From contig JAYSUJ010000024.1 of NCBI GenBank assembly GCA_043719155.1, positions 3,424 through 67,423 of the forward strand: a stretch of DNA of 64,000 nucleotides, read 5' to 3'. This DNA comes from a bacterium. GTDB taxonomy: Bacteria > Patescibacteriota > Minisyncoccia > Phycocordibacterales > UBA5272. Below, one piece after another: positions 1,223 to 43,927 of this stretch; position 1 is the first letter of the stretch; every line of letters starts with the position of its first letter. A program made the translations under genes and the position numbers. Below the pieces are notes generated by a model. The model did not search any database. It worked only from the letters and a program-made list of their open reading frames with translations, and was not told where the DNA came from.

Positions 1223-1654
1223 TTAGGGCCAAGCTGGTGGAGTAGCCCCACGACAAGCTTTCCAGTTTTTAGTATTTGTGGAGTCAACCAAATCAGGCTG
1301 AGAAGTGTTTTTGAAAATACTTCCCACCGCCCCTACACAATAACTTTTAAAGTCTGTAGTGTTGACGGAATACTTGTAACTACTTACACCCCCACTTGTA
1401 GAGTCGCTTGGTAATTTATTTAAAAAAACAGGCATCAACTCCTCTTTTGTGGCAGGATATTTTCCATTCACACTTTTAAAAGCTTCAAGCGCTAGCTGGT
1501 AGTCTCGTATCCCGGCCAAGTGTGAAGTGTCCTGAGCTTTTTGACGAACCGAAGTTAAGCCGTAGACAGCAATACCACTTAAAATACTTATAATTGTTAT
1601 TACCACCATAAGCTCTATTAAAGTAAAGCCTAAAAGTTTTTGTTTTTTTAACAT
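1223..1654 (-). CDS. Type IV pilin / pseudopilin-like protein with a prepilin N-terminal cleavage/methylation domain
   Basis: N-terminus MLKKQKLLG|FTLIELMVVITIISILSGIAV is the class III signal, with G-F cleavage and the E5 hydrophobic helix. The C-terminal domain is small and variable and contains Cys. Confidence 0.7.
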   Translation of the reverse strand: MLKKQKLLGFTLIELMVVITIISILSGIAVYGLTSVRQKAQDTSHLAGIRDYQLALEAFKSVNGKYPATKEELMPVFLNKLPSDSTSGGVSSYKYSVNTTDFKSYCVGAVGSIFKNTSQPDLVDSTNTKNWKACRGATPPAWP

Positions 1655-1684: not shown

Positions 1685-3439
1685 TTACATTTTTTCTGGG
1701 GCGTTTATACCCAAAATATATAAACCCTTTTTTAAAGTATCTTTAGCTAAACTAGTCAGATGTAAATTGTACCGAGTATTTTCTAAATTATTTTCATCAA
1801 TAATTTTCTGTTGTGCATAAAAAGAGTTGAACTCGCTTGCCAGCTCGAACAGATATTTTATGAGTTTTTGAGGTGCAATTTCTACTGCGGCAATATTTAA
1901 AATAAAATCAAATTGTAAAACTTTTCTTTCTATTTTACTTGTACTAAACTCCTCTCCTTTGTAAGGAGAGGCTGGGTGAGGTAGAGACAGTCCTCTCTCC
2001 AACAAACTCGCACATCTAGCATGGGTATAACAAAGGTAAGGTCCAGAGTCTCCCTCAAAACTACTTGCCCTCTCTGGGTCAAAATCTATATTTACACCAG
2101 GTTTACTTCGCAAAATTGCAATTCTGAGAGCTGAAAGGGCGATTTCTTTTTGTAATTTTTCTTTTTCTAAACTATTTAAATTTGCTACCCTCTCGTCACT
2201 TCGCTCACACACGTCTTCATAAACTGCATTTATAACCTCTTCTGCACTTGGCACCCCCCCAAGTCGGCTCGACATTTTTTTTCCTTTAAAGGTCATTCGT
2301 CCGTGCGGCACGTGTATACTTTTTTCAACCCAGTTTTCATTTATTTTTTTCGCCGCATCTAAGACCAATCGAAAATGTGGAGACTGCTCATTGTCAGTTA
2401 TAAAAAAAGAAAAGTCAGGGTTGTATTTTTTAAACTTTAGATCCAGTAGACCAATGTCTTTGGCGGCATAGGTCGGGTTACCCTCGCTATTTATAAAAAC
2501 TCCTGTATTTATGTCTTTTCTATTTTCGCCTGGGACGTAGATTATTGCTCCTTCACTTTGTTGAAAAATTACTGGTACATTTTCTATCACAATTTCCTTA
2601 CCTCTCACCCCAGCCTCTGACTCAAAAATGAAACCCTCAAAATTGGATTCTAGCTTTTTGGCCATTTCGTAAAAATAGTCTAAATTTATTTTCTTAGCAT
2701 ATTCATAAATCTCCACATCTTCGCTTTCTACTTTTCCATATAGATTGTTGGAAATATTCTTTACTTTTCTTATCTCGTCCTCTTTTTTTTCCTCTTCAAA
2801 TTTTTTAAATTCTTTTACACCTCGCACATAAGTTTCCCCTAAATATTTTACAGCTTCATCTATGTGTTCTTTTTTTTTCAAAAACTCTAGACCACCGTCC
2901 AACTTTATTATATAAATTGCCTTAGCTATGCCAATAGAAATGTCGGATGGATAGGAAATATCTGTAACTTTTGCCCCCATTTCTTTCATTATTCTAGTTA
3001 TGAACTCGCCAGTAAAGTTGTTCATTAAATGCCCAACCGTAAAAGGTTTAAATAGATTTATAGAAGTATGCTCCACTAAAACTTTTTTACCAAAATATTT
3101 TAGATTTACATATTTCACTTTTTCACTTTTTACAAATTCTGACTTTAAGTAAAAGTTTATAAAGCCCGGCATTTTAAACTCTAACCTTTCGGCTATTGCA
3201 TTTTTTTCTTCTCCTTTGTAAGGAGAGGTTAGGTGAGGCAGCAAAATATCAAACACTTCTTTCGGGGCTTTCTTTAGAATTTTACTCGCAACCAAACATA
3301 CGTTACTGGTCACATCTCCGTGTTCAAGCTCTGGCACATCTACAGTGAAATTTACCTTTTGAAACTCTAACCCCAACTCCAAAAAAACTTTTTCCAAGCT
3401 TTTTTCTATTTCTTGTTTTATGTTATCTAAATAGTTCAT
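1685..3439 (-). CDS. argS: Arginyl-tRNA synthetase; carries two in-frame copies of a short palindromic repeat
   Basis: 584 aa. Class I HIGH-like motif region HTSINLFKPFTVGHL. C-terminal DALR anticodon-binding-like SALRIAILRSKPGVNIDFD. N-terminal Arg_tRNA_synt_N-like region. The peptide LPH(L/P)(T/A)SPYKGEE occurs twice, see the repeat features. Confidence 0.8.
   Translation of the reverse strand: MNYLDNIKQEIEKSLEKVFLELGLEFQKVNFTVDVPELEHGDVTSNVCLVASKILKKAPKEVFDILLPHLTSPYKGEEKNAIAERLEFKMPGFINFYLKSEFVKSEKVKYVNLKYFGKKVLVEHTSINLFKPFTVGHLMNNFTGEFITRIMKEMGAKVTDISYPSDISIGIAKAIYIIKLDGGLEFLKKKEHIDEAVKYLGETYVRGVKEFKKFEEEKKEDEIRKVKNISNNLYGKVESEDVEIYEYAKKINLDYFYEMAKKLESNFEGFIFESEAGVRGKEIVIENVPVIFQQSEGAIIYVPGENRKDINTGVFINSEGNPTYAAKDIGLLDLKFKKYNPDFSFFITDNEQSPHFRLVLDAAKKINENWVEKSIHVPHGRMTFKGKKMSSRLGGVPSAEEVINAVYEDVCERSDERVANLNSLEKEKLQKEIALSALRIAILRSKPGVNIDFDPERASSFEGDSGPYLCYTHARCASLLERGLSLPHPASPYKGEEFSTSKIERKVLQFDFILNIAAVEIAPQKLIKYLFELASEFNSFYAQQKIIDENNLENTRYNLHLTSLAKDTLKKGLYILGINAPEKM
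1951..1984. repeat. 34-nt palindromic repeat, copy 1, inside argS and in frame
   Basis: cctctcctttgtaaggagaggctgggtgaggtag. The first 21 nt form a perfect hairpin with a 9-bp stem and 3-nt loop. Copy 2 is about 90% identical. Confidence 0.6.
3208..3241. repeat. 34-nt palindromic repeat, copy 2, inside argS and in frame
   Basis: cttctcctttgtaaggagaggttaggtgaggcag. Same palindrome core as copy 1. Confidence 0.6.
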
Positions 3440-3529
3440 CTTTTTTTCTGGTTTTTCTTTTTACATTTTACCACAAAAAAGACTCCCCCACGTTTTGCAA
3501 CGCGAGAGAGCCAGTCGTCCAAAGAGATC

Positions 3530-3814
3530 TTAGAAACGGTTTGTAATATGACCGTCGGGCTCGACAGAGACTTTCGTCCCAACCTTTGCCTGTTTTGGCC
3601 AAACAACGACCTTAGTCGTCGAACCGTCAGGGAAACGAAGAGTCACCTCTTCGCCCATGCAGCTCAGGCTCATCACCCGGCACTGCCTTTCCAGATCGTA
3701 AATCGGTCCTTGGACACTTTCAACCACTCCCTCCCGAGTCTTCACCTCCTGTCCGTTGGACGAGGTGGTGCCGACTGCGAGAAAGGCAACTACTGCGAGG
3801 ACATGACGAATCAT
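3530..3814 (-). CDS. Small secreted hypothetical protein (signal peptide) in a sharply GC-rich patch
   Basis: MIRHVLAVVAFLAVGTTSSNGQ... begins with a signal-peptide-like N-terminus. The region 3480-3830 is far more GC-rich than its flanks by eye. An alternative plus-strand ORF 3548..3841 lacks any signal. Confidence 0.35.
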   Translation of the reverse strand: MIRHVLAVVAFLAVGTTSSNGQEVKTREGVVESVQGPIYDLERQCRVMSLSCMGEEVTLRFPDGSTTKVVVWPKQAKVGTKVSVEPDGHITNRF

Positions 3815-3866
3815 GTTGTATCCTTTTGGTTTGTGTGGTAGATAATCTAAATAATAACAGAAATAT

Positions 3867-5120
3867 TCATTTTGTCAAGCTCTTGTCCCCCTTCCCAGAA
3901 GGGGGACAAGAGTAGAGAAGAAGCGCAACACACAGGACGACAGATGCAAATATGGTAGAAATTTTTACCCCAAATCTTTCACTCATGAAACCAACGTACA
4001 AACCACCTATGGAGCCAGTACCAATAATTGCCATGGACCAAAGAGAAGTGACTAGTCCAAGCATCTTTTCTTTACTATTAAGCATAACTAAAGCATTTGC
4101 CGTATTACCCATCAAAATTCCCAAAAACCCAGTCAGTAAAACGAAAAGCAGAAAGAAAGGAAAAGTTAGAGGTAGGGCCAAACAACCGAAAACCATAATA
4201 AGCAGAAAGCCTAATTTTTTTACTTTAATTTGACTCACATTTCTGTCTTGGGCCCCGTATATACCACCCAACACACAGCCAACGCTATAAAAAGTAATAA
4301 TAGTAGCATAGGACAAGGCGTTGCCACTAAAAATTTGCTTGATGAAAATTGGTGCTAAAGTTTGAATTATTAAAATAAAAGTCCCAACAACCCCCAAAAG
4401 AAGTAAGGTATCCCTTACGACTAAATTTCGCCAAATTTCTTTTAAATTTTTTATTAAACTTTTTTCTTCTTTTTCTTTTTCCTTCTCTGTTTCTGAGTTT
4501 TTTTCTATTTGGTTAAATTCACTCTTATTCATTTTTAAAATTAGAAAAATAGCAGCTAAAAAAGAACAGGCATTTAGTAAGAAACACCAAGCTGCCCCAA
4601 ATGCTGCCAAAACTATGCCTGAAATAATTGGACCAATAATTCTACCTAAACCATTTATGGTTGAAAAAAGCGATATAGCATTTTTAGTTTCGGATTTTGG
4701 TATAAGCCTGTACCTTAAAGATTGACGAACTGGGGCATCAATAACACGCAGCATTCCAGCCCAAAGTGCACTTGCGTATAAGAAATAAATATTTAGACCA
4801 CCGGTAAACAGGAGGCAAGCAACAAAAAATGGCATCAGAAATTGCAGAAATTGCACAATTAAAACTGTTTTATACTTTGGCAAACTGTCCACAATGTGTC
4901 CTCCAAATATCCCAAACACCAAAAGTGGCAAAAATTGTAAGGCAGTTATGATTCCCAAGGTTTCAGCCGAGCCTGTAATTTCATAGGCTAGCCAATTTAA
5001 AGCAATTGCCTGAACCCAAGAACCGGTTATGGACACAAATTGGGCAGCTATATACAGTCTAAAATTTCTATACTTAAGTGAGGAGGTAATTTTTTGAAAA
5101 ATACTAGAAATTTTAAGCAT
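3867..5120 (-). CDS. MFS transporter, EntS/MFS_3-like
   Basis: 417 aa with about 12 predicted TM helices. Conserved N-terminal RNFRLYIAAQFVSITGSWVQAIALNWLAYEITGSA is typical of MFS_3 exporters. Confidence 0.65.
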   Translation of the reverse strand: MLKISSIFQKITSSLKYRNFRLYIAAQFVSITGSWVQAIALNWLAYEITGSAETLGIITALQFLPLLVFGIFGGHIVDSLPKYKTVLIVQFLQFLMPFFVACLLFTGGLNIYFLYASALWAGMLRVIDAPVRQSLRYRLIPKSETKNAISLFSTINGLGRIIGPIISGIVLAAFGAAWCFLLNACSFLAAIFLILKMNKSEFNQIEKNSETEKEKEKEEKSLIKNLKEIWRNLVVRDTLLLLGVVGTFILIIQTLAPIFIKQIFSGNALSYATIITFYSVGCVLGGIYGAQDRNVSQIKVKKLGFLLIMVFGCLALPLTFPFFLLFVLLTGFLGILMGNTANALVMLNSKEKMLGLVTSLWSMAIIGTGSIGGLYVGFMSERFGVKISTIFASVVLCVALLLYSCPPSGKGDKSLTK

Positions 5121-5188
5121 CTAAACATTCTACCATAACAAAAAACTTATCTTTGCAGATAAGTTTTTTGTTTGTAAATTCTTAAACT

Positions 5189-5614
5189 TTAGTTTGTAAC
5201 TTCGATACCCATAGACTTTGCAGAACCTGCTAAAACTTTAGCAGCAGCGTCTATTGTAGTTGCATTTAAGTCTGCCATTTTAAGGGCTGCTAATTCTTTT
5301 AAGTCTGCCATAGATATTTTCCCAGCTTTGATACTTCCAGGTTTTGTAGAACCTTTTTTCATTCCCATTTTTGTAAGTATGAGCTCTGTGGCTTGGGTTG
5401 TACCAGTTTTAAAGTCATAAGTTCGGTCTTCGTAAACAGCAATTTTTGCAATTAATTTACCTTTTTTGTCTTTAGTAGCATCATTGAATTTTTTTACGAA
5501 CTCAGCAATGTTGATACCAGCTTGCCCAAGAGCCGGACCTAGTGGCGGCGCAGGAGTTGCTTTTGCAGCTTCGATCTTTACTTTTATATTCTTTTTAGCT
5601 ATTTTTTTTGCCAT
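5189..5614 (-). CDS. rplK: 50S ribosomal protein L11
   Basis: MAKKIAKK...ATPAPPLGPALGQAGINIAEFVKKFN is the L11 signature. It lies downstream of nusG. Confidence 0.9.
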   Translation of the reverse strand: MAKKIAKKNIKVKIEAAKATPAPPLGPALGQAGINIAEFVKKFNDATKDKKGKLIAKIAVYEDRTYDFKTGTTQATELILTKMGMKKGSTKPGSIKAGKISMADLKELAALKMADLNATTIDAAAKVLAGSAKSMGIEVTN

Positions 5615-12164: not shown

Positions 12165-12204
12165 AATAAAAAAGTGGCCAGTTTCGCGAAGCGAAACTGG
12201 CCAC
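12165..12204 (-). terminator. Strong GC-rich intrinsic terminator of the vWA gene
   Basis: Perfect 14-bp stem gtggccagtttcgc-gaa-gcgaaactggccac, followed on the minus strand by a T-run. Confidence 0.7.
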
Positions 12205-31727: not shown

Positions 31728-33476
31728 ATGGAAACAAAAACAAAAAACTCATACCAATACGGAAGAGTAAGCACGCCCGAACAATTAACTTCTGGCGACA
31801 GTTTAACTCACCAAGATAAAGTGACAAAAAATGAAGCAATCAGAAGAGGTATAAACCCAACAAATTTTTATGGCGATACAATTTCCGGGTCTTCAATTAC
31901 CCGGGACGGTTACGACCAAATGTTTTTTGATTTAAAAAAAGCAAACAGTAAAATCCAAACAATATTCTACGTGATTATAAAATGTATTGACAGATACACA
32001 AGGGGTGGAGCAGAGTTCTATATAATGATGACGAACGATTTAAAAAAACTCAATGTTCAACTAATAGATGTGGCCGGGATAATCCAAGAAGAAAAAAATA
32101 GTTTGGAAGACAAAGGATTCACATACGAATGGAGTAAATACAGACCGAGCGAAACAGCAGAACTCATAGAAGCCCAAAAAGGTAAGGGTGAAAAACGAGA
32201 TATCTTAACTAGGACCATAGGGGCACAAATTTCTCTAACCCAAAAAGGTTTTCGTATGGGGAGTCCCCTTGATGGAATGAGAAGCGAAACACAACTAACT
32301 GACGGAAAAAATAGAATTGTATTTGTCAGAAAAGATGGATTTGTGCATTTTATAGAAAAGATTTTTGAAATGAGGGCAAGTGGTGTAAATTCAGATTTAG
32401 AAATTATTTCAACTTTGAATGCTATGGGATACAAATCCCCAATAAGAAATAGGTGGTCAAAAAATAGAGAGAAACATCTAGGCCAAACAGGCGGCGGACC
32501 TTTAGATTTGAAACGGCTAGAAAAAATCTACTCGAAAGTTGGATATTGTGGAATCTTACTCCATAAGTGGAATAAATATTTACCGATAAATGGTCAGATA
32601 GAAAAAATCATTTCTATTGAAGTCTATAACAAAGCAAACAAAGGAAAAAGATTTATTGTCGAAAACAGTGATGGAACTTACGAAATAAAAACAAATTACA
32701 ACCCAATTCAATCAAGGCCTAGATTAGAAAAAAATCCACTTTATCCGTACGCAAAAGTTGTTAAATGCCAATTCTGTGGTTTAGGCTTTAAATATAGCGC
32801 CGCAAAAGGAAAAAACAAAAAGAAGTCCAGTCCAGGATATCATTGTTCGTATAAACACGAATATTTTAGGAAGCCAAAAAAGGAGTTTGAAGATACCATA
32901 GAAAATTATTTGAAGTCGCTTTCTCTCACGGACGCTTTCGTTGAAAAAATGCAAAAAGAATTGGTCGATACTTTTTCAACTAAAAGTGGCGAACTAAAAA
33001 ATAAATTTGCAAAGATATTTGTAAATATTGCAGACCTTAAAGCCGAACAGGAAAAATACATTAGCGAATACATTGCTACCAATAATCCAATAATAAAAAG
33101 TTCTATTGAAAGTAAAATCAACAAAATTGAAGAGCAAATTAAAAATGCCACAGATGTTGGTGAGGAAAATGAGGTTGAAGAATTAAATGTTGACGAGTTT
33201 CTTGCTTACACCAGAAATTTTTTGAAAGACCCATCAAATCTTGTTTTGGAAGAAAAAACAAATGTTGATACAGTGGGTGTTCTATTCAGTCTTATATTTG
33301 AAGAAAAACCGACCTACAATAATATCTTGTATCGAACACCTAAATTAACCAGTGTTTTCAAGCACTTTTCTGCAAACAAACAACCAGAAAACCAATTGGG
33401 GTGCCCAATGGGAATTGAACCCATACTAGGGGATCCACAAACCCCTGTGATAACCATTTCACTATGGGCACCATAG
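31728..33476 (+). CDS. Large serine recombinase (integrase of the island); its 3' end reads through tRNA-His antisense
   Basis: The N-terminal YGRVSTPEQ is the resolvase/invertase catalytic serine motif. A recombinase domain follows, then a zinc-ribbon-like CQFCGLGFKY...HCSYKH and a C-terminal coiled coil. Confidence 0.8.
   Translation: METKTKNSYQYGRVSTPEQLTSGDSLTHQDKVTKNEAIRRGINPTNFYGDTISGSSITRDGYDQMFFDLKKANSKIQTIFYVIIKCIDRYTRGGAEFYIMMTNDLKKLNVQLIDVAGIIQEEKNSLEDKGFTYEWSKYRPSETAELIEAQKGKGEKRDILTRTIGAQISLTQKGFRMGSPLDGMRSETQLTDGKNRIVFVRKDGFVHFIEKIFEMRASGVNSDLEIISTLNAMGYKSPIRNRWSKNREKHLGQTGGGPLDLKRLEKIYSKVGYCGILLHKWNKYLPINGQIEKIISIEVYNKANKGKRFIVENSDGTYEIKTNYNPIQSRPRLEKNPLYPYAKVVKCQFCGLGFKYSAAKGKNKKKSSPGYHCSYKHEYFRKPKKEFEDTIENYLKSLSLTDAFVEKMQKELVDTFSTKSGELKNKFAKIFVNIADLKAEQEKYISEYIATNNPIIKSSIESKINKIEEQIKNATDVGEENEVEELNVDEFLAYTRNFLKDPSNLVLEEKTNVDTVGVLFSLIFEEKPTYNNILYRTPKLTSVFKHFSANKQPENQLGCPMGIEPILGDPQTPVITISLWAP
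33396..33417. repeat. 22-bp direct repeat, the att-like right boundary, inside tRNA-His
   Basis: Identical to 15029-15050. Confidence 0.75.
33397..33472 (-). tRNA. tRNA-His (anticodon GTG) with encoded G-1 and 3' CCA
   Basis: Manual fold on the minus strand. G-1 is followed by the acceptor GTGCCCA/TGGGCAC and a D-arm GTGA-AATGGTTA-TCAC. The anticodon loop is TT-GTG-GA, the T-arm ATGGG-TTCAATT-CCCAT, and the discriminator C pairs with G-1. Confidence 0.8.
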
Positions 33477-33626
33477 TTTTTTACACAGTCTTTAACACTT
33501 AAAGTGGATTCTGACATTTTAACACAGAAAAGTCTTTCTGGCTAATATTATTTTGAAAAAATTGGTATAAAAAAAGTGGGACCAAAAAGTCTGGCCCCAC
33601 CAATATTGCCATAGCTGAAAAAACAC

Positions 33627-34343
33627 TTACTCGCCTGCACCCTCCTCTTCCGAAGAGGTAGACACAGACTTATCGTGAGTCAGGCGTTTCCGCCGTTCAC
33701 GCATGTAATGCTCTTCCCGCCATTGTCGACAGTCGATCTCCATCCACTCAGGGTGAATGTTCTTGATGAACCAGATTCCCTCGAAAGGATTATCTATCTC
33801 TCTAATGAGGCAGAAGATAAATGAGAAGATGTAGGTTGTAGAGCCGATGAGAAGTACCCCGCTCCAAGGAGTTGGATACTCCAAACCCATTGCACCACCG
33901 ATAATGAAGATTGCCAAGATGGTCATGAGGGCATGTGCCAGAGGCGATACATCTTCATCACGTAAATGCATGAAAGTGTGGATGTCATAGCGTTTGATGG
34001 CCATACGCACCCCCTTATACTCCTCAAGAACTTTCGAAATGAACCACCCTGAGGTGACACTGTAAATAAGTGTTACGGAGGGCATGAAGTATGCCACCCA
34101 ATACTCTTTCACCTCCTTGTGGAAGTGAATATGATTTTGGTACAAGACCAGATACCAAATAGTACACGCGATGAACACCGGTATTGCCGGTTGCAACATC
34201 AGCAATGCTGTTTTGATGACAGTTGTCACCAACTTCGTTTTGGTCAACCGTCGACTGTTAATCATATACGGTTCGCGGTAGAACTCTAAGTCACCAAATT
34301 TCATCCTAAACTCTTTCATGGTTTTCGGTTGTAACTTTCCCAT
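33627..34343 (-). CDS. Hypothetical 4-TM membrane protein
   Basis: 238 aa with about four TM helices and a charged C-terminus. Confidence 0.35.
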   Translation of the reverse strand: MGKLQPKTMKEFRMKFGDLEFYREPYMINSRRLTKTKLVTTVIKTALLMLQPAIPVFIACTIWYLVLYQNHIHFHKEVKEYWVAYFMPSVTLIYSVTSGWFISKVLEEYKGVRMAIKRYDIHTFMHLRDEDVSPLAHALMTILAIFIIGGAMGLEYPTPWSGVLLIGSTTYIFSFIFCLIREIDNPFEGIWFIKNIHPEWMEIDCRQWREEHYMRERRKRLTHDKSVSTSSEEEGAGE

Positions 34344-34414
34344 TTGGGAAACTGCATTCTACCACATAAAAATACACATAGCAAAAATTAAATTTTAGGC
34401 TATACTTTTATTCT

Positions 34415-35593
34415 ATGGATAAACCTCCGACTCAAGTATCAACAATAAACAGAGGCAACCCAGAGAGATTCAAATCAATAGTTACCACAGAAGTAAGAGA
34501 GTTAAAAGAAAAATTGGAAAATCTTTACAATATAAACGTTGCTCTACCAGAATTTTCCAGAAAAAGCTCCAGATTTGCTTCTCATATTCCAAAAATTAGA
34601 GATTTAGATGTTGCTAGCCCAGAAAAAGTGCAGAAAAATGAGACAGAGTGTCAACTGATTTTCTTAAAAAATTTAGAGGACCAGTTATCTAAACTCAAAA
34701 AAGCCTGTGACGACTCAAGAGTTAAAGACGGCCTCATGGGATTCTTTAAAGTAAGAAATGGAAAAAAAGTAACCATTAGACTCCCAGATTTCACTTCAAA
34801 AGTTGGCAGAAAAGTTATAGAAACTATCGAGAAAAGAGGTCATGTTAGTGGTCCAACAGAAGCAAAAGTAACTGGCGGTGAGCTAGCTTTAAGTTTGATA
34901 TTTCACGGAATACCTGTTGTTCAAATTATTGCCCTGTCTGTAGCTGGTTACAAAGTAGGTAGAAAAATAAGACCATTTATTACAGTTGACAATAAAAACC
35001 CAGATGTCCGCGAGCTAAACATAACTCTAAATGCAAGCCAGCACGACCTAATTGCTATAATTAAAAATTACCAAACATCGGAAAATGCCCAAGAAGAACG
35101 AAACTCTAACGAAAAAGAAAGAGCTATAGCAGAACTTGTTGGCAAATACATTGGTGAAAATGTATCTCAAAAAACCAAAGAGCTTGCCAACAATTCACAA
35201 GCAAAATTGGCTTGTCTAAACTTATCTAACAGGATAGTAGCCGAGTTTGGAGTGATAACTTCAATTCCTCGTGAACTTTTTAACTTTAGAATGTTTCGTA
35301 TTCCAAACGGACCAAAAGTTGAAAGCCCTTTGAGGGACAACAGTGGGGTTGGTTTTTACCAAGTTTTGCATCAATATCTTTTAAATGTAGAACAGATACT
35401 TACAACTGCAAGATCTAAAGCTTTAGATCTGCATCCAAACAATTCTGTACATAGAAAACTAAAAAACAAGACCATACTTGCTGGCAAACATTTTAAAATT
35501 GGTTACAACACCATTAACATTCCAATGAAAGTTAACATCGAAAGTGCTGCAGAAGCGTTGGTAAAATATTTAATCGAACCTGAAAATAAATAA
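34415..35593 (+). CDS. Hypothetical protein
   Basis: 392-aa ORF with no recognised motif. Confidence 0.3.
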   Translation: MDKPPTQVSTINRGNPERFKSIVTTEVRELKEKLENLYNINVALPEFSRKSSRFASHIPKIRDLDVASPEKVQKNETECQLIFLKNLEDQLSKLKKACDDSRVKDGLMGFFKVRNGKKVTIRLPDFTSKVGRKVIETIEKRGHVSGPTEAKVTGGELALSLIFHGIPVVQIIALSVAGYKVGRKIRPFITVDNKNPDVRELNITLNASQHDLIAIIKNYQTSENAQEERNSNEKERAIAELVGKYIGENVSQKTKELANNSQAKLACLNLSNRIVAEFGVITSIPRELFNFRMFRIPNGPKVESPLRDNSGVGFYQVLHQYLLNVEQILTTARSKALDLHPNNSVHRKLKNKTILAGKHFKIGYNTINIPMKVNIESAAEALVKYLIEPENK

Positions 35594-35655
35594 CTTTACC
35601 TGCGCCTGCACTCATGTAGAAAAAACACCAAATTCTTGGTGTTTTATCTCATGAG

Positions 35656-35737
35656 TGCCCCCGACTGGACTCGAACCAGCATGCCGTTAAGCGTTACCAC
35701 CTCAAGGTAATGGGTCTACCAATTTCCCCACGTGGGC
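35656..35737 (-). tRNA. tRNA-Leu (anticodon GAG), class II with a long variable arm
   Basis: Manual fold. Acceptor GCCCACG/CGGGGGC with one A.G mismatch. The D-arm TGGGGAAATTGGTAGACCC is typical of Leu. Anticodon loop CTTGAGGTG. Long variable arm, T-arm GCTGG-TTCGAGT-CCAGT. Closely parallels bacterial tRNA-Leu(GAG). Confidence 0.6.
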
Positions 35738-35770
35738 AGACTTACATTTTAGCATTTTAAATGTAAAAAT

Positions 35771-35797
35771 AAAACTCAAGTTTTTTTCTTGAGTTTT
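35771..35797. terminator. Bidirectional intrinsic terminator between rplS and tRNA-Leu
   Basis: aaaactcaag-ttttttt-cttgagtttt, a 10-bp stem flanked by A and T runs. Confidence 0.6.
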
Positions 35798-35818
35798 ATT
35801 TAAATTTAATTTTAGATG

Positions 35819-36229
35819 TTATTTAACAATTTCGTTTTTAGTGTCGGTATTTTTAGCAATTTTAGCTTTTGTAGTTTTCAAAATTTTACGAGTTTCTTTG
35901 GCTGCTTTTTCACGAACAAAGTAAATCTTTGACTTTCGAACGTCGTTTGAACGTACTATTTTTATAGATTCAACGGCTGGTGAGTAGAGTGGGAAAATTC
36001 TTTCTACGGCAACGTCACCTGACATTTTTCGTACTGTAAATGTTGCACCAGCCTCTGTACCATGCTTTCTTGCGAGACAAAGCCCTTCAAAAGATTGGAT
36101 TCTAAATTTTCCATCTGACTCTTTTATTTTTGTTGCTACTTTCAAAACGTCTCCGGACTTAAATGTAAGAGCCTTTCGCTCAGCCACATCTACAGTACTT
36201 AGTTTTATTGCTGTTATTTGACTAGACAT
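35819..36229 (-). CDS. rplS: 50S ribosomal protein L19
   Basis: ...RIQSFEGLCLARKHGTEAGATFTVRKMSGDVAVERIFPLYSPAVESIKIV is the L19 signature. Confidence 0.85.
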   Translation of the reverse strand: MSSQITAIKLSTVDVAERKALTFKSGDVLKVATKIKESDGKFRIQSFEGLCLARKHGTEAGATFTVRKMSGDVAVERIFPLYSPAVESIKIVRSNDVRKSKIYFVREKAAKETRKILKTTKAKIAKNTDTKNEIVK

Positions 36230-36325
36230 ATATTTTTATTATGGAAGCATTATAACACAAAAATCCCAGCCTCGCAACAAAAAGTGACACACAAAAATAG
36301 ATAGGCTATACTAAAACAAATAAAT

Positions 36326-37144
36326 ATGAGTTCAGAAAATTTAAATAGTTTTTGGAGAGCTGAACCACCTAAAACAACGGAAAAAGTTTTACCTCCCCAC
36401 CTTGACGAACAAAAAGCAATTTTGACGATAAAAAATATTTTAGACATCTATGATTTTAACCAAATTACAACCGAGCATATAGGGGCAGGAACAATAGAAA
36501 ATCTTGTTTTGATGATTTTCAATATCAAAGAAAAAATTCATGAATACGATGTTATCGTAGGGGATGACGATAGTGGCCGGATTCCCGCCTTACTTGTTTG
36601 GAGGGTGGCCTGTCTTGTCAGAAGAAAAGCTGGCCTAAAGTCCCCTTTTTTTTTACCCTTGGCAGCTGGAAGAGACTTGAATGAAAACCCTAAAAGACAA
36701 GAGGACATAGGGAACGAATTAGAAAAAGTATTATGTAAATTTGTGATTCCTCCGAAACTACTTGTTGTAACAGACCATATCACGACCGGTGAAGGAATGA
36801 GCAAACTTGACTCATTATTGACAGATAAATTGCACACACATTTTCCAGACGCAAGCAAGAAAACAGCTGACGTTCTGACTGGTACTTTAAAAATTGAGTC
36901 AGAACTAGACCCAGATCTGGCTTTAAGAACTTGGTATGGACAAAATGATAAAACAGTTAGAGGTTTCTATAGAGACAAAGGAAACACTGGCTTTACGAAA
37001 CACAAAGACTTGGACTCTGCCAGATCATTACCCAACACGTACAGGCAAGTGTTAAACAAAGCCCGTAATAAATTTACAGACTACAGAAAAACTAGGCGTG
37101 ACATAGCAAGACTCGCACCTATTTTAGCTCAAATAGTTTCTTAA
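36326..37144 (+). CDS. Phosphoribosyltransferase (type I PRT)-like domain protein
   Basis: LLVVTDHITTGEGM resembles the PRPP-binding motif, and VIVGDDDSGRIPAL is upstream of it. Confidence 0.35.
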   Translation: MSSENLNSFWRAEPPKTTEKVLPPHLDEQKAILTIKNILDIYDFNQITTEHIGAGTIENLVLMIFNIKEKIHEYDVIVGDDDSGRIPALLVWRVACLVRRKAGLKSPFFLPLAAGRDLNENPKRQEDIGNELEKVLCKFVIPPKLLVVTDHITTGEGMSKLDSLLTDKLHTHFPDASKKTADVLTGTLKIESELDPDLALRTWYGQNDKTVRGFYRDKGNTGFTKHKDLDSARSLPNTYRQVLNKARNKFTDYRKTRRDIARLAPILAQIVS

Positions 37145-37901
37145 AATCTTTTGGTATTGATGACTCTACTTTTATTTTCTCTCCGTCAAAAGGACTAAAA
37201 AAAGTAATGCTCTTTGCATGTAAAAGCTGCCTCACTTTTTCTTTACCAAAATATTTTTTCTCGAAATTGGTTTTTGTTGGTCCATACAAATGGTCGCCGA
37301 CTATAGGATGCCCAAGACTTTTAGAGTGGATACGTATTTGGTGGGTACGACCTGTTTCAGGGAAAAACGCAACCAAAGACAATTTCTCACCGAAGATTTC
37401 TAATCTTTTTATAACTTTGTATCTTGTCAGCGCCTCCCTCTCCTCTCCTCTGTATTTCCCTACCGTCTTTACAACTTCCTTTTTTCGAAAGTCAGACTTA
37501 CTCCTGGCTATAGCTGTGTCTATTATTCCAGTCTCATATTTGTAACTCCCCCAAACCAAAGCAACATATTCTTTACGAATTTTATGAGTTACAAATTGAT
37601 TTTTTAAATTTTCATACGAGTCTTGGTTTTTTGCTAACAACAAACAGCCAGTAGTGTCTTTGTCTAGTCTATGCACTATCCCGGGTTTTTGCACTTCTAC
37701 CTTTACTCCCAAATTTTCAAAAATCAAATTCTCACCGACTCCCTTTAGAGTTTTAAAGTTTTTCAAAACATAATCAGCAATAGTAATTGCTCTTTTTTCT
37801 TTAGTCACTTTTTCAGCCTTACCGTCTCCATGTACAACAAAACCCGCTGGCTTGTCTAAAACCAACAGGTTCTTGTCTTGGAATAATACTTTTATTTTCA
37901 T
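37119..37901 (-). CDS. RluA-family pseudouridine synthase, second paralog
   Basis: LVLDKPAGFVVHGDG...HRLDKDTTGCLLLAKN. Confidence 0.8.
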   Translation of the reverse strand: MKIKVLFQDKNLLVLDKPAGFVVHGDGKAEKVTKEKRAITIADYVLKNFKTLKGVGENLIFENLGVKVEVQKPGIVHRLDKDTTGCLLLAKNQDSYENLKNQFVTHKIRKEYVALVWGSYKYETGIIDTAIARSKSDFRKKEVVKTVGKYRGEEREALTRYKVIKRLEIFGEKLSLVAFFPETGRTHQIRIHSKSLGHPIVGDHLYGPTKTNFEKKYFGKEKVRQLLHAKSITFFSPFDGEKIKVESSIPKDFKKLFELK

Positions 37902-37929
37902 AAAAGTATTATAGCAAATTTATCTTAAA

Positions 37930-38361
37930 TTACTTGCAACATTTTGAATGCACAGACATTTTCCCTGGGCCAACTAAAGCGATACCTATAGAGCAAACCA
38001 ACAAAAGAAGTTGAAACTCGTATCCACCCGCCATTGCATTGAAACCATTTTTAAAATGCACCATAGAGATAGCCACTATCATGATCACTGCAAAAAGACC
38101 ACCAACCAATCTTGTCATTACCCCAGCTGCCATAAGTAGACCTCCTAAAAATTCTACATAAGCTACGGCGTAAGTCAAAAATGCCCCAACGCCCATAGAC
38201 CCAAACATTGCCAAAGTTCCTTCCATGTTGGAAACTTTCATCCAGCCGTGAACAATAAAAGTAGCCGCTACAGAAAGACGGATTATCAAGAGTGCAATGT
38301 CCAGGTGTTTTGGATCATTAGAAACTCCACAGGCCAAGTCACAGATTTTTTTACCATTCAT
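37930..38361 (-). CDS. DoxX family membrane protein
   Basis: ALLIIRLSVAATFIVHGWMK... with four TM helices, the DoxX pattern. Confidence 0.6.
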   Translation of the reverse strand: MNGKKICDLACGVSNDPKHLDIALLIIRLSVAATFIVHGWMKVSNMEGTLAMFGSMGVGAFLTYAVAYVEFLGGLLMAAGVMTRLVGGLFAVIMIVAISMVHFKNGFNAMAGGYEFQLLLLVCSIGIALVGPGKMSVHSKCCK

Positions 38362-38450
38362 AAGTATTTATTTGTTTTTTGTATACATTAAAAATGTGTA
38401 TACCTGCACTAAAGTATACTCGAGACTAGTAATGTTTTGCAATACCCCTG

Positions 38451-38523
38451 TGGGCGATAGAGGACTCGAACCTCTGACCTTCGCTGTGTAAAAGCGTTGC
38501 TCTACCAACTGAGCTAATCGCCC
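38451..38523 (-). tRNA. tRNA-Val (anticodon TAC)
   Basis: Manual fold. Acceptor GGGCGAT/ATCGCCC, D-arm GCTC-AGTTGGTA-GAGC, anticodon loop TT-TAC-AC, T-arm AGAGG-TTCGAGT-CCTCT. Confidence 0.75.
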
Positions 38524-38616
38524 AAATATTTTTTACTTTATTTGAACAGAAACATTATAACAAGGAGTGAAGAAAAAGTAAATGCTGGGGGCAAATTTTG
38601 TTAATACTCTCAAAAC

Positions 38617-39684
38617 TTGTATACTTTTTTGCAAATGGCAAAACACGTAGTAGCAGAGGCAAGAGCTGCAGGAAAAAATATGGTTGTTAACAGTACCCCG
38701 TCACAGATAACCAGTTCTTTTAACTATGACCCCAATGCCGAAAATTTAAAACCTGCTAACAACAATCCGCCAGCCAAGAAAACTAATGCATCCAATATCT
38801 ACCCACTGATAAAAGATTCAAACCCAGAGGTGGCTCAAAAAAAAGCCCAGCAGAGAGCGGCTAGCCTCAACCCAGACAAAGCTGAAGCAGAACTCAGTAG
38901 GCAAGAAGGAAAAGAAGCTGAGCAAACATACTCCAAGGCAACTAAAAAACTTTTAGAAGGCCAGACAAAAGTAGAAAATCCGGACTCAAAGGAAGCAAGC
39001 CAAGAGGAAGAATCTGCGGAGCTGCAAAAAGTGCAAGAGGAGCAAGCAAGAGAAGAACAAGAAAAAATAAATTTATTCCTTGCTCAAGATGCTGAAAGAG
39101 CGGAAGAAGAGGAGATTGACGCCCAAGAAACAAAAATGCGCGAAATAGAAAGTAACTTGAGGCTAGCTGGTTACAAATTTACCAGAGAAGATATAGAGTT
39201 TTTCATGGCGTCCGACTTTAAAGTAAACTTTCCTGTAGGCATGACCATTACAGCTGGTGTGTCTTTTTTAACTAGTGTTTTCTTTTTTTTCACTTCCCTA
39301 GTCATGTCTGTAGGAGGCTCGTTGGCAGGCTCTCCACTTGCCTGGCTTTCTACACTTGGCTTTAGCTTGGTTGTAAAGGCAGTACTCGAAACTACCAGTC
39401 TTGGAATTTTTGTAATTGGCTACATTACTCAAACAGCCTTTAGTTTTGGAGAAATCGGGGTAATGATTTACTATTTAAAAACTGGCTCTTTAGTTGCAAG
39501 AAAAGGAAACTTGGTCAGGAAATATTTAACACGCTTGATAATTATCTGGCTGATAATTTTCTTTATTGGCTGGATCCCTGGCTTAGGCTTGATAATTTAT
39601 TTTGCAGGAGGTCGAGGAATCTGGAGACTGGTAAAACGAGAAACAAGAAAAGTTGAGAAAATAATAAAAAATGGTCTGCAGTAA
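38617..39684 (+). CDS. Hypothetical protein with a disordered E/K/Q-rich N-terminal half and a C-terminal multi-TM domain
   Basis: 355-aa ORF with clear coding periodicity. Confidence 0.4.
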   Translation: MYTFLQMAKHVVAEARAAGKNMVVNSTPSQITSSFNYDPNAENLKPANNNPPAKKTNASNIYPLIKDSNPEVAQKKAQQRAASLNPDKAEAELSRQEGKEAEQTYSKATKKLLEGQTKVENPDSKEASQEEESAELQKVQEEQAREEQEKINLFLAQDAERAEEEEIDAQETKMREIESNLRLAGYKFTREDIEFFMASDFKVNFPVGMTITAGVSFLTSVFFFFTSLVMSVGGSLAGSPLAWLSTLGFSLVVKAVLETTSLGIFVIGYITQTAFSFGEIGVMIYYLKTGSLVARKGNLVRKYLTRLIIIWLIIFFIGWIPGLGLIIYFAGGRGIWRLVKRETRKVEKIIKNGLQ

Positions 39685-39743
39685 AAACATTTTAACCATT
39701 GTAAAATATAGGATTTATGGTATAATTTTCCTATCCAAAAATT

Positions 39744-39815
39744 GCTTCCGTAGTTCAATGGATAGAACAGGAGACTTCTAAGCTCTTGATGTAGGTTCGA
39801 TTCCTGCCGGAAGCA
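39744..39815 (+). tRNA. tRNA-Arg (anticodon TCT)
   Basis: Acceptor GCTTCCG/CGGAAGC, D-arm GTTC-AATGGATA-GAAC, anticodon loop CT-TCT-AA, T-arm GTAGG-TTCGATT-CCTGC. One non-Watson-Crick pair at 31:39. Confidence 0.7.
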
Positions 39816-39828
39816 CACAAAAAACGTT

Positions 39829-40248
39829 TTATCTTACTGTCGTACCCGGCTCAGGTTCCCCCACCGGACTCACCATAAACAAATTTCCAGCATCTCCACC
39901 GGCAAACAGAAGCATACCGTTACTCTCAAACCCCCGCATTTTTCTTGGTGCCAAGTTTGCCACTACGCATACATATTTACCAACAAGTTCGTCTCCTGTT
40001 TTAAAATATTCTCGTATGCCTGATAAAATAGTTCTGTATTCTGGAGACACACTTTCTTCTCCCGTTTCAGAAATTACTTGTTTTGTTTCCCCTACGTCTA
40101 CTAAAAATCTATAGAGCTTGTCAGCCCCATCTATCGTGTGACACTCTAAAATTTTGCCAATTTTAAGTTGAACTTTTGCAAAATCTTCGATACCAATAGT
40201 TTTTACAACATTCACAGTTCCTTCTTTTTTAATTTCATCTGTTTGCAT
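39829..40248 (-). CDS. tRNA-binding domain protein (CsaA/Trbp111/Myf-like)
   Basis: IEDFAKVQLKIGKI...DGADKLYRFLVDVGE...ELVGKYVCVVANLAPRKMRGFESNGMLLFA is the OB-fold tRNA-binding signature. Confidence 0.8.
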   Translation of the reverse strand: MQTDEIKKEGTVNVVKTIGIEDFAKVQLKIGKILECHTIDGADKLYRFLVDVGETKQVISETGEESVSPEYRTILSGIREYFKTGDELVGKYVCVVANLAPRKMRGFESNGMLLFAGGDAGNLFMVSPVGEPEPGTTVR

Positions 40249-40265
40249 ATTTATATTATATTTTA

Positions 40266-40739
40266 TTACATGTCTTCACTATCTGCAATTCCCTGCTCAA
40301 ATTCTTCTTGCTTTTTCTTTTCCTCGTCAGTCTTCACATTCACTTTGTCTAAATATCTTTGTAAAATTAGGGCGGCTGCCCTGTCATCTATGTCTTTCTC
40401 ATTGTCCAAATATCTTGCATGCTTACTAGTTAAAAACTCTTTCTCATATTTAAATTCTATCTCCCCATTTAAAACTCTTGCCTCGTATTTTTCTTTCATC
40501 ATGTTTACAAAACTTTGAGTCTTTTCCCAAATGTGATTATGTATACCTTTAGAGTTTACACTTTCTCCAAAGATAATTCTTTCAAAAAGCACATTACTCA
40601 ACATATGGTCTAGCTCGGCCTCCAGACTTTCAGTCGGCACAATTTTTAATGGCACAGCCACTGTTCCCTTGTCGTCACTCACTGCTAGCCCACATTTTTT
40701 GGCTCCAAAGTCTACGGATAAGTATTTCATGTTATTCAT
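40266..40739 (-). CDS. ruvX: Putative pre-16S rRNA nuclease / Holliday junction resolvase YqgF (RuvX)
   Basis: YLSVDFGAKKCGLAVSD..GTVAVPL is the YqgF N-terminal motif. The acidic C-terminal extension is atypical. Confidence 0.65.
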   Translation of the reverse strand: MNNMKYLSVDFGAKKCGLAVSDDKGTVAVPLKIVPTESLEAELDHMLSNVLFERIIFGESVNSKGIHNHIWEKTQSFVNMMKEKYEARVLNGEIEFKYEKEFLTSKHARYLDNEKDIDDRAAALILQRYLDKVNVKTDEEKKKQEEFEQGIADSEDM

Positions 40740-40801
40740 TATAGCAAAGTTATTGAAAAATTAGAAATATGTGTTATAATTTTGGAGTTCTCAAAAACTC
40801 T

Positions 40802-40873
40802 GCTCGGGTAGTTCAATGGATAGAATATAGGATTGCGGTTCCTACGATACAGGTTCGATTCCTGTCTCGAGCA
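40802..40873 (+). tRNA. tRNA-Arg (anticodon GCG as read from the fold)
   Basis: Acceptor GCTCGGG/CTCGAGC, D-arm GTTC-AATGGATA-GAAT, anticodon stem TAGGA/TCCTA, loop TT-GCG-GT, T-arm ACAGG-TTCGATT-CCTGT. Backbone highly similar to the tRNA at 39744. Confidence 0.65.
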
Positions 40874-43219: not shown

Positions 43220-43927
43220 TTAAGAAAACATTTTTATTTGATTAATGTAATCACTAACTTTTTCAAGAGTTTCCGACACTGTTAAAACTTCGTTATCAAT
43301 ATAATACCCTTCTTTTACATTATCAACCATACTAAAAACAAATTCAGCAGACTCCTTCCCGAAAACTTTTTCTCTTTTTGAGTCTCTCTCAATACACACC
43401 TTAAGTGAGCTAAACAAAGTAATAAAAAGTACGTTACCCCTAAACTTAGATTTCAAATCTTCCACTTGGTCTTTGTAATAAAAACAACCACACAGTAAAT
43501 TTATTTTATCTGACACACAACTTTTAAAAACTATTTCATTGGATTTTATAAAATTTTCTAAAGGAATGCCATCGTTCGCACTTAAATTATTATCGTCAAT
43601 AATTTTATCCAAAGACAAATAATTATAAACTAGACTGTTTGCGAGCAGCTTTGAAATTGTGGTTTTCCCAACTCCTAATGGTCCACGGATAACTATCAAT
43701 TTTTTACTTGACAGATCTTGGGTAGGTGTTATACTTTCTATACTAACGCCAAATGGCGCCTGAGAAACCCCGTGTAAAAACGGGGTTTCGTCTTTATGTA
43801 AAATTACCCTATTAACTTGAGCAACTAATTTCAAAAACTCATCTTCCGATTGTTTTTTAACACAGTTCCAATCATCGAAGTTTTTGCTAATGTCTTTTTG
43901 TCCTAAAGGGACTTGGTTTCCATGCAT
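43220..43927 (-). CDS. P-loop NTPase/kinase-like protein inserted between the ABC ATPase and permease genes
   Basis: Walker A IVIRGPLGVGKTTISKLLA, typical of small-molecule or nucleotide kinase folds, preceded by a roughly 95-aa N-terminal domain. Confidence 0.45.
   Translation of the reverse strand: MHGNQVPLGQKDISKNFDDWNCVKKQSEDEFLKLVAQVNRVILHKDETPFLHGVSQAPFGVSIESITPTQDLSSKKLIVIRGPLGVGKTTISKLLANSLVYNYLSLDKIIDDNNLSANDGIPLENFIKSNEIVFKSCVSDKINLLCGCFYYKDQVEDLKSKFRGNVLFITLFSSLKVCIERDSKREKVFGKESAEFVFSMVDNVKEGYYIDNEVLTVSETLEKVSDYINQIKMFS

Follow-up and report, generated by a model that had tools for sequence, protein, structure and literature searches.

How does an essential enzyme come to carry the same short piece of DNA twice within its coding sequence, and to what family of repeats does that DNA belong? 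The question is raised by argS, which encodes a 584 aa arginine--tRNA ligase (ArgRS; assigned by open reading frame (ORF) and Pfam) on the minus strand at 1685-3439 of a 64,000-nucleotide (nt) stretch of contig JAYSUJ010000024.1 from a Patescibacteria genome (assembly GCA_043719155.1), referred to below as the window. The copies are most probably 33-nt non-autonomous class II purine-motif intrastrand triplex repeats of the type called BoxC, PIT or TM, tolerated in frame within argS. The element class itself has already been published. New here are its presence in Patescibacteria and its position in frame within essential genes, an A/T-adapted variant, and natural covariation that backs the triplex fold. 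The original prediction, which had seen in the copies a palindrome like those of Rickettsia, was right in spirit, since it recognized an in-frame selfish mini-repeat, but it was wrong about the family and overlooked the third arm.

Both copies are on the plus strand, copy 1 at 1950-1984 and copy 2 at 3207-3241. They are 35 nt each, 89% identical and 1257 nt apart, in agreement with the approximate figures first proposed (90% and 1.26 kb). The 21-mer CCTCTCCTTTGTAAGGAGAGG is found with 0 mismatches at 1951 and 1 mismatch at 3208, and zero matches were obtained across 100 dinucleotide-preserving shuffles of the window, the G+C content of which is 35%. Both copies are real and far above chance expectation. 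A covariance model trained on 54 family members and run over the 64-kb window detected only these two, with 57.6 bits for copy 1 and 49.4 bits for copy 2, and a triplex-motif scan of the same DNA returned the same two and no others, as had been claimed. A weaker inverted relic had also been proposed at 2597-2620. This segment codes for the FESEAGxxGK motif, invariant or nearly so in 32 ArgRS orthologues including distant ones, and the covariance model was silent there at E<=10; the relic was therefore rejected, and its likeness to the repeat is due to chance.

The natural unit is 33 nt (1951-1983 and 3208-3240), not the 34 nt first delimited. Both copies have the same layout of 9+3+9+3+9 nt on one strand: a pyrimidine arm, a loop, a purine arm, a linker, and a third arm. 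In copy 1, the pyrimidine arm CCTCTCCTT (1951-1959) is followed by the first loop TGT (1960-1962), a position that is free to vary family-wide, by the purine arm AAGGAGAGG (1963-1971), its Watson-Crick complement, by the linker CTG (1972-1974), and by the third, or reverse-Hoogsteen, arm GGTGAGGTA (1975-1983), a mirror of the purine arm with one A changed to T. This is a complete class II triplex motif with a mirror score of 7/7. Copy 2 is slightly decayed and consists of the pyrimidine arm CTTCTCCTT (3208-3216), the first loop TGT (3217-3219), the purine arm AAGGAGAGG (3220-3228), the linker TTA (3229-3231), and the third arm GGTGAGGCA (3232-3240). The perfect hairpin claimed for each copy is present in copy 1 (9 bp; computed folding energy -14 kcal/mol); in copy 2, one C-to-T change in the pyrimidine arm (CTTCTCC) produces one stem mismatch, and the mRNA-sense hairpin carries an A·C mismatch.

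The third arm reads as the purine arm in mirror order in which A may become T, the rule for a purine-motif (reverse-Hoogsteen) triplex. As single-stranded DNA, the plus strand, d(CCTCTCCTTTGTAAGGAGAGGCTGGGTGAGGTA) for copy 1, would form a hairpin that folds back on the third arm, giving G·G-C, A·A-T and T·A-T triplets; 9/9 triplets are allowed in copy 1 and 8/9 in copy 2. Features of class II members are present: an antiparallel third arm in the proper layout with at most one mismatched triplet, and dispersal as a repeat with stems more conserved than loops (at least 118 loci; 2 in the window). Three 9-nt arms and two 3-nt linkers add up to 33 nt and so account for the 11-codon size of a clean insertion in a relative's argS (L205, see below), and a 9-nt third arm that obeys the triplet rule accounts for the conserved T after GGTGAGG and for the T or A that follows. 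The GAG directly after the third arm of copy 1 makes a TAGAG-type extension that is common to Nitrospirales copies.

The system that matches this anatomy is an E. coli repeat named BoxC, then PIT element, then TM_ECO (Holder et al. 2015, NAR 43:10126, PMC4666352, where earlier BoxC work and Hoyne & Maher 2000 are cited). According to that paper, TM_ECO is a class II element with 9-nt arms and the pattern CCCTCNCCC N3-6 GGGNGAGGG N3 GGGNGAGGG, TTA (type A) being the commoner second loop, and its oligonucleotides form a stable triplex in vitro by circular dichroism (CD) and nuclear magnetic resonance (NMR). The copies in E. coli K-12 MG1655 are described there as 'always intergenic', sometimes as inverted doublets, with no transposase association, and related G/C-rich motifs as abundant in cyanobacteria (PMC4666352). 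The E. coli consensus was found in 5412 of 5426 complete E. coli genomes, at a median of 18 places per genome.

The window unit and TM_ECO are alike in the order of parts, the 9-nt arms, the 3-nt second loop, and the mirror relation between the third arm and the purine arm. Each arm has the same 7-nt core in both (CCTCTCC / GGAGAGG / GGTGAGG), and the second loop of copy 2, TTA, is that of type A. Both have a variable first loop, form inverted doublets, are unlinked to a transposase, and occur in many bacterial hosts. They differ at the arm ends, which in the window are A/T instead of G/C: C-G·G triplets have become T-A·T triplets, with compensating changes in each of the three arms. Because the window arms CCTCTCCTT / AAGGAGAGG / GGTGAGGTA end in A/T, they do not match TM_ECO in its strict form. 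They also differ in location, in frame inside an essential gene in the window and intergenic in MG1655, and in host, as Patescibacteria are not mentioned in the parts of Holder et al. 2015 (PMC4666352) consulted here. Triplex folding has been shown for the E. coli TM_ECO oligonucleotides only.

Natural variants of the unit provide evidence on the fold, as all three arms change together. Across aligned diverged copies, variant stems are paired with matching variant 3' tails: CCTCTCC / GGAGAGG goes with GGTGAGG, CCTCCCC / GGGGAGG with GGTGGGG, and CCCCTCC / GGAGGGG with GGGGAGG or GGGGTGG. The only unconstrained third-arm positions, 34 and 35, both follow the triplet rule; a T is kept at position 34 in 107/112 copies, and position 35 is T or A in 95/112. 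The rule was also examined in all pyrimidine/purine hairpins of the fetched DNA that have a mirror-asymmetric purine arm, unselected on tail (n=142 unique). A perfect 7/7 mirror tail was present in 42 of these, spread over 16 different cores. When the tails were permuted 1000 times, perfect scores numbered 5.8±2.1 and never exceeded 13. A perfect direct copy, expected if the tail paired alternatively (Watson-Crick) with the pyrimidine arm, was present in only 5 of the 142, and that alternative was rejected.

The covariation shows that the constraint acts on a three-stranded fold of the DNA, or on whatever reads that fold, and not on the encoded peptide; we infer that the selected state is a folded single DNA strand. 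The constraint does not act through a purine-motif triplex in mRNA, since such triplexes are reported not to form in RNA (PMC4666352), and a plain mRNA hairpin may still be compatible with the covariation. A few copies sit just 5' of start codons, for example ahead of uvrA in L087; because the triplex rule explains the conserved tail, mimicry of the Shine-Dalgarno / anti-Shine-Dalgarno helix, by which the unit would provide ribosome-binding sites, is not needed. The covariation constitutes evolutionary evidence, from phyla remote from E. coli, of natural selection on the three-stranded fold or on its recognition.

The unit is widely distributed. In a scan that took a single genome for each species, and for which we calculate ~0.004 chance matches in 596 Gb, the pattern CTCTCCTTNNNAAGGAGAGGNNNGGTGAGG matched at least 118 loci from about eight phyla, mostly intergenic. 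The hosts among the matches listed include many Patescibacteria classes, Leptolyngbyaceae / Halomicronema cyanobacteria, Nitrospirota, Armatimonadota, Bacteroidota and relatives, Ignavibacteria, and Gammaproteobacteria; cultured isolates of Gracilimonas, Aquimarina, Halomicronema and Acinetobacter rudis carry it as well. The loci have unrelated flanks, an invariant stem and a freely variable first loop (112 aligned copies), and over some 40 nt there is hardly any difference between copy 1 and a copy from Nitrospirales. Phages were rejected as the vector, as the viral contig collection contained only 2 matches. No Rfam family covers the argS copy region or the Nitrospirota copies, and literature searches by DNA words and by the coded peptides returned nothing relevant.

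Location within genes varies with the host. Copies deep inside long ORFs made up 10/41 in named Patescibacteria, 3/18 in unclassified metagenome-assembled genomes, 1/42 in Cyanobacteria, 0/11 in Nitrospirota, and 0/11 in the other phyla. The genes that carry a copy in frame in Patescibacteria include those for IleRS, PriA, TatD and HflX; a radical-SAM activase gene also hosts an intragenic copy. In intragenic copies, the triplex-forming strand is mostly the template strand of the host gene: a hand count of apparently independent events gave ~12 versus 3 (from the window, L001, L015, L018, L030, L050, L058, L076, L093, L096, L104, L113, L122, and L202-L205), and the ORF census gave 11 'opposite' versus 3 'same'. 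The availability of open frames could underlie this bias, as could selection against a G-rich non-template strand. Units often form inverted doublets 20-45 nt apart, as at L021 7757-7876, L062 7692-7809, L072 4100-4220, L010 4799-4898, L073 2395-2479, and, inside priA, L076 1455-1547; such doublets, which occur at Patescibacteria loci too, resemble the pairs of type A and type B reported for E. coli.

Two arrangements seen among these loci are more complex. At five Nitrospirota loci (L029, L037, L082, L099, and L111), the unit lies within longer flanks that are conserved among the loci, beside a second variant unit, which suggests that in that phylum it forms part of a larger, modular repeat. 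In L006, from Candidatus Kerfeldbacteria, an ORF of >2600 aa contains two segments that look intein-like by eye (C...VAHNT), each with a triplex unit near its N-terminus; the two units are read in different frames (LSLSRRGEGEV and QPLLTKERSGEV).

The relatives of argS bear on the age of the two window copies. A search for ArgRS homologues gave 2167. The closest are metagenome proteins with at most 64% identity, the exact protein being absent from the records, and the nearest named ones come from Parcubacteria / Paceibacteria. Copy 2, at the N-terminal site, encodes LPHLTSPYKGEE (L67-PHLTSPYKGE-E78) on the minus strand in the argS frame, and copy 1, at the C-terminal site, encodes LPHPASPYKGEE (L486-PHPASPYKGE-E497) in the same frame. 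The argS of L001 (P0004) is 63% identical to that of the window in amino acids and 66% in nucleotides over the gene. The unit at its N-terminal site is 94% identical in nucleotides and agrees in codon position and orientation with that of the window, and its C-terminal loop contains a second copy a few codons off and in the opposite orientation, which reads PLLYKERLGEV. Copy 2 is orthologous to the copies in L001, L202, L203, L204 and L122. In the last four, the N-terminal copy is in various states, including compensated stems in which CCTCCCC / GGGGAGG stands for CCTCTCC / GGAGAGG; L205 has no recognisable N-terminal copy. A variant unit (CCCCTCCTT / AAGGAGGGG / GGGGTGG) occupies a third loop in L205 (P0002), as a clean insertion of 11 codons. 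By this comparison, the N-terminal copy is an old insertion inherited within a clade of Paceibacteria-like genomes, and the C-terminal and third loops were hit independently in different lineages.

The structural setting was examined in an AlphaFold model of the window ArgRS built from 32 aligned orthologues (mean predicted local distance difference test score, pLDDT, 88.4). Pfam assigns Arg_tRNA_synt_N to residues 6-98, tRNA-synt_1d to 115-447, and DALR_1 to 470-584. Residues 67-78 are predicted to form the end of a helix (59-74) and a loop, with pLDDT <50 at 74-79, after which comes the strand running to the conserved PGFINF motif. Residues 486-497 are placed in a 17-residue coil (485-501) after the first DALR helix. 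The expectation that the copies occupy surface loops is thus borne out in the model, in which both fall in low-confidence coil or at a helix end; the C-terminal one, however, is within the DALR_1 envelope and not, as had been supposed, between the catalytic core and the anticodon-binding domain. Both segments align by sequence with loops of about equal length in the ArgRS structures 2zue and 1iq0, and the loops of element-free Patescibacteria orthologues are only ~0-5 residues shorter. The peptide LPH(L/P)(T/A)SPYKGEE is in frame, as predicted, but it has mostly overwritten loop residues rather than lengthened the enzyme by 11-12 residues; the coded residues stand in for those of a helix end and loop, and the net gain in length is small.

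These observations are consistent with the following scheme. The unit would spread via a single-stranded DNA stage, using an enzyme or a repair route. Being 33 nt, or 11 codons, with several open frames, it leaves a protein intact when it lands in a tolerant surface loop. The copies in argS would be passengers, tolerated rather than functional, and the build-up of intragenic copies in Patescibacteria would possibly follow from the scarce intergenic space of small genomes.

Several points weigh against the scheme or against the triplex assignment beneath it: i) no transposase, RAYT or other gene was consistently linked to the unit, and the only Y1 transposases among the loci retrieved are accompanied by their own hairpins; ii) in ~168 kb around argS in the clade, nearly all matches are inside argS, where at least 5 independent events are counted, a concentration that is unexpected under purely random insertion; iii) the ArgRS loops are hardly longer than element-free ones, so that later deletion of flanking residues, or replacement of existing sequence, must be assumed; iv) no near-identical filled/empty pair from which to read target-site duplications and exact junctions was available (the closest ArgRS is 64% identical); v) copy number is known for the 64-kb window only (2); vi) arm covariation could also reflect recognition by a protein; and vii) according to PMC4666352, an in vivo dimethyl sulphate (DMS) footprint of the E. 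coli element gave no protection. A bolder extension of the scheme, which we regard as speculative and rather doubtful, is that BoxC / TM elements are pan-bacterial ultra-small mobile elements that move, or are copied by repair, through a selected single-stranded DNA triplex intermediate read by a widespread enzyme, and that in Patescibacteria they enter the coding regions of essential genes, with argS as a preferred target and new loops in core proteins as a result.

A comparable case was seen in E. coli itself. In the yijF-gldA spacer of one lineage (L209 150-600 compared with L210 and L211), a TM doublet is present exactly where K-12 has a REP cluster, with identical flanks. Two repeat families fill one intergenic slot in different E. 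coli strains; the doublet takes the place of the cluster and is not a simple insertion, so that the locus yields no junction rule.

The comparison with Rickettsia palindromic elements (RPEs), on which the original prediction was based, holds for behaviour. RPEs, made known by Ogata and colleagues, are reportedly selfish-looking and reside in frame within housekeeping genes. RPE-1-type elements are ~100-150 bp, are simple palindromes, and are not known from outside Rickettsia. The argS unit is likewise a dispersed non-autonomous mini-repeat that is in frame in an essential gene, in surface regions, with variable presence among orthologues. Kinship is not indicated, as the unit is 33 nt and asymmetric, has a third mirror arm, occurs in other hosts, and has zero sequence similarity to RPEs. 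The small dispersed repeats (SDRs) of cyanobacteria, an account of which is credited to Elhai et al. in 2008, are said to be tiny hairpin-forming mobile repeats that also occur in conserved genes and in other repeats. The unit is likened to them by this description, and we know of no triplex architecture in SDRs.

REP and REPIN elements, which are associated with RAYT transposases (Bertels & Rainey 2011, PMC3116915), come closer in form. Like the unit, they are 20-40 nt long with a G+C-rich hairpin, occur as singles and inverted doublets, and are occasionally intragenic and translated; the GTAG- and CGTC-tagged REPs occur inside genes (Di Nocera et al. 2013, PMC3733652), and two short RPEs, RPE-4 and RPE-6, are counted among the CGTC-tagged REPs (PMC3733652). 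They differ from the unit in lacking its conserved third arm. No RAYT gene flanked by the unit was found in ~1.6 Mb of fetched loci. In addition, some REP families are species-specific, whereas the unit has a near-identical sequence across phyla.

One alternative, which we consider unlikely, is an ordinary REP- or RPE-type palindrome moved by a RAYT (an IS200-like Y1 enzyme), the tail being used by the enzyme for recognition or as a guide rather than forming a third strand. The size of the unit, its REPIN-like singles and inverted doublets, the precedent of intragenic REPs and of RPEs reclassified as short REPs, and the presence of RAYT-like and IS200-like genes in Patescibacteria all speak for it. 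The sequence of the unit and its surroundings do not. None of 112 aligned copies has a GTAG or CGTC tag, the 5' flank being T/C-rich, and neither the published REP family lists nor the REP survey's supplements contain the motif. There are zero Y1 genes near the 118 listed loci, and an all-against-all comparison of 1340 ORFs from these loci gave no recurrent neighbour gene. The preference for mirror over direct-copy tails fits triplet geometry, unlike a Watson-Crick guide.

Two genes of the type that such a mover would require were encountered, and both were rejected as movers of the unit because they have unrelated hairpins of their own. An IS200-like Y1 transposase gene (L204 21036-21488; Pfam PF01797, E = 6.7e-34) is found 9 kb from the argS of the P0016-encoding relative. 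In L046 (Candidatus Andersenbacteria), a RAYT-like gene at 4897-5562 (221 aa; HFHLL ... YIHLNP) has the hairpin AATTCCAAGGC...GCCTTGGAATT on both sides, within 4838-5600. In addition to the triplex units, classical REP / RAYT systems thus seem to exist in Patescibacteria; a search of the literature for REP or RAYT in Patescibacteria found nothing.

Triplex repeats kept as passengers must also be weighed against exaptation, in which the units, or at least the N-terminal one, are kept for a role in argS of the DNA or RNA hairpin, of the triplex, or of the coded loop. Candidate roles are polymerase or ribosome pausing, mRNA stability, autoregulation, and a function of the ArgRS loop. The N-terminal unit is unusually well preserved: its nucleotide identity is 91-94% between lineages in which argS has diverged to 61-66%, third codon positions match at 9/11 of its identical residues as compared with 52% gene-wide, and compensated stem variants occur at the same orthologous site. 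Matches also cluster in argS and not in ~155 kb of the clade's flanking genes, and this concentration keeps exaptation, or a preference for argS as target, alive at low probability. On the other hand, the C-terminal loop accepts the unit in either orientation and with different codons, giving unrelated peptides, L205 has no recognisable N-terminal unit, and the mRNA-sense hairpin of copy 2 is mismatched. Many genes unrelated to argS contain the same unit, as does the intergenic DNA of other phyla, and its E. coli relatives, according to PMC4666352, had no promoter or terminator activity and no replication effect in vivo. On balance, exaptation seems quite unlikely.

That the copies are ancestral ArgRS sequence, an old protein motif duplicated or conserved with secondary likeness in DNA, is extremely improbable: related peptides (LTSPxxRGG, SPYKGEG and others) do occur at the N-terminal position in several orthologues, but the unit is far more identical in nucleotides than the gene, its inversion in L001 yields a different peptide from the same DNA, that DNA recurs in unrelated genes and intergenic regions of eight phyla, and the loops of more distant orthologues and of solved ArgRS structures are unrelated in sequence. 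An assembly or sequencing artefact (an adapter or a chimeric join), considered only since a short sequence recurs in many metagenome-assembled genomes and with no sign of it found, is just as safely set aside, as the copies lie mid-gene in a conserved gene, keep its frame and differ by point changes, and as three samples, assembled independently, and cultured isolates all contain the unit, with a related element in 5412 complete E. coli genomes.

As class II triplex repeats, the argS copies indicate that this family is not confined to intergenic DNA and that in small-genome Patescibacteria it would be translated within essential enzymes. Knowledge of intrastrand triplex repeats in E. coli goes back to the 1990s, but without an assigned function, a mechanism, or evidence of folding in vivo. 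The parallel to Rickettsia palindromic elements offers a second, independent system for how proteins absorb inserts. The 11-codon patches also explain many odd proline- and glycine-rich low-confidence loops in Patescibacteria proteins, and such patches can mislead alignments and phylogenies made from metagenome bins.

Other features of the window were noted. A 143-aa protein with a type IV pilin-like N-terminus by eye is encoded directly 3' of argS (1223-1654, minus strand); the gene at this position downstream of argS in relatives has the Pfam domain N_methyl (PF07963). On the other side of argS is a G+C-rich island (3450-3900; ~50% versus 35% for the window), which contains a 94-aa ORF on the minus strand (3530-3814) with a signal-peptide-like N-terminus by eye. 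It is followed by what looks by eye like a multi-pass membrane transporter gene (3867-5120). These two genes break the L11-argS adjacency of the relatives L202, L203 and L205, and the island is probably acquired DNA. A perfect 15-bp hairpin, CTCTTGTCCCCCTTC-CCA-GAAGGGGGACAAGAG (3880-3912), codes for the last residues of the transporter-like ORF. It is followed by TAGAG, the pentamer also found after copy 1, and does not obey the three-arm rule.

Perfect G+C-rich hairpins with stems of 10-14 bp are also located at 12174-12204, 43764-43789 and 61363-61393, and may be terminators or another repeat family. Five tRNA genes are clustered within 7.5 kb (33400-40873). The minus strand at 29268-29385 matches LOOT RNA (Rfam RF03000; 74.4 bits versus a gathering score of 46.4), an RNA family without known function.

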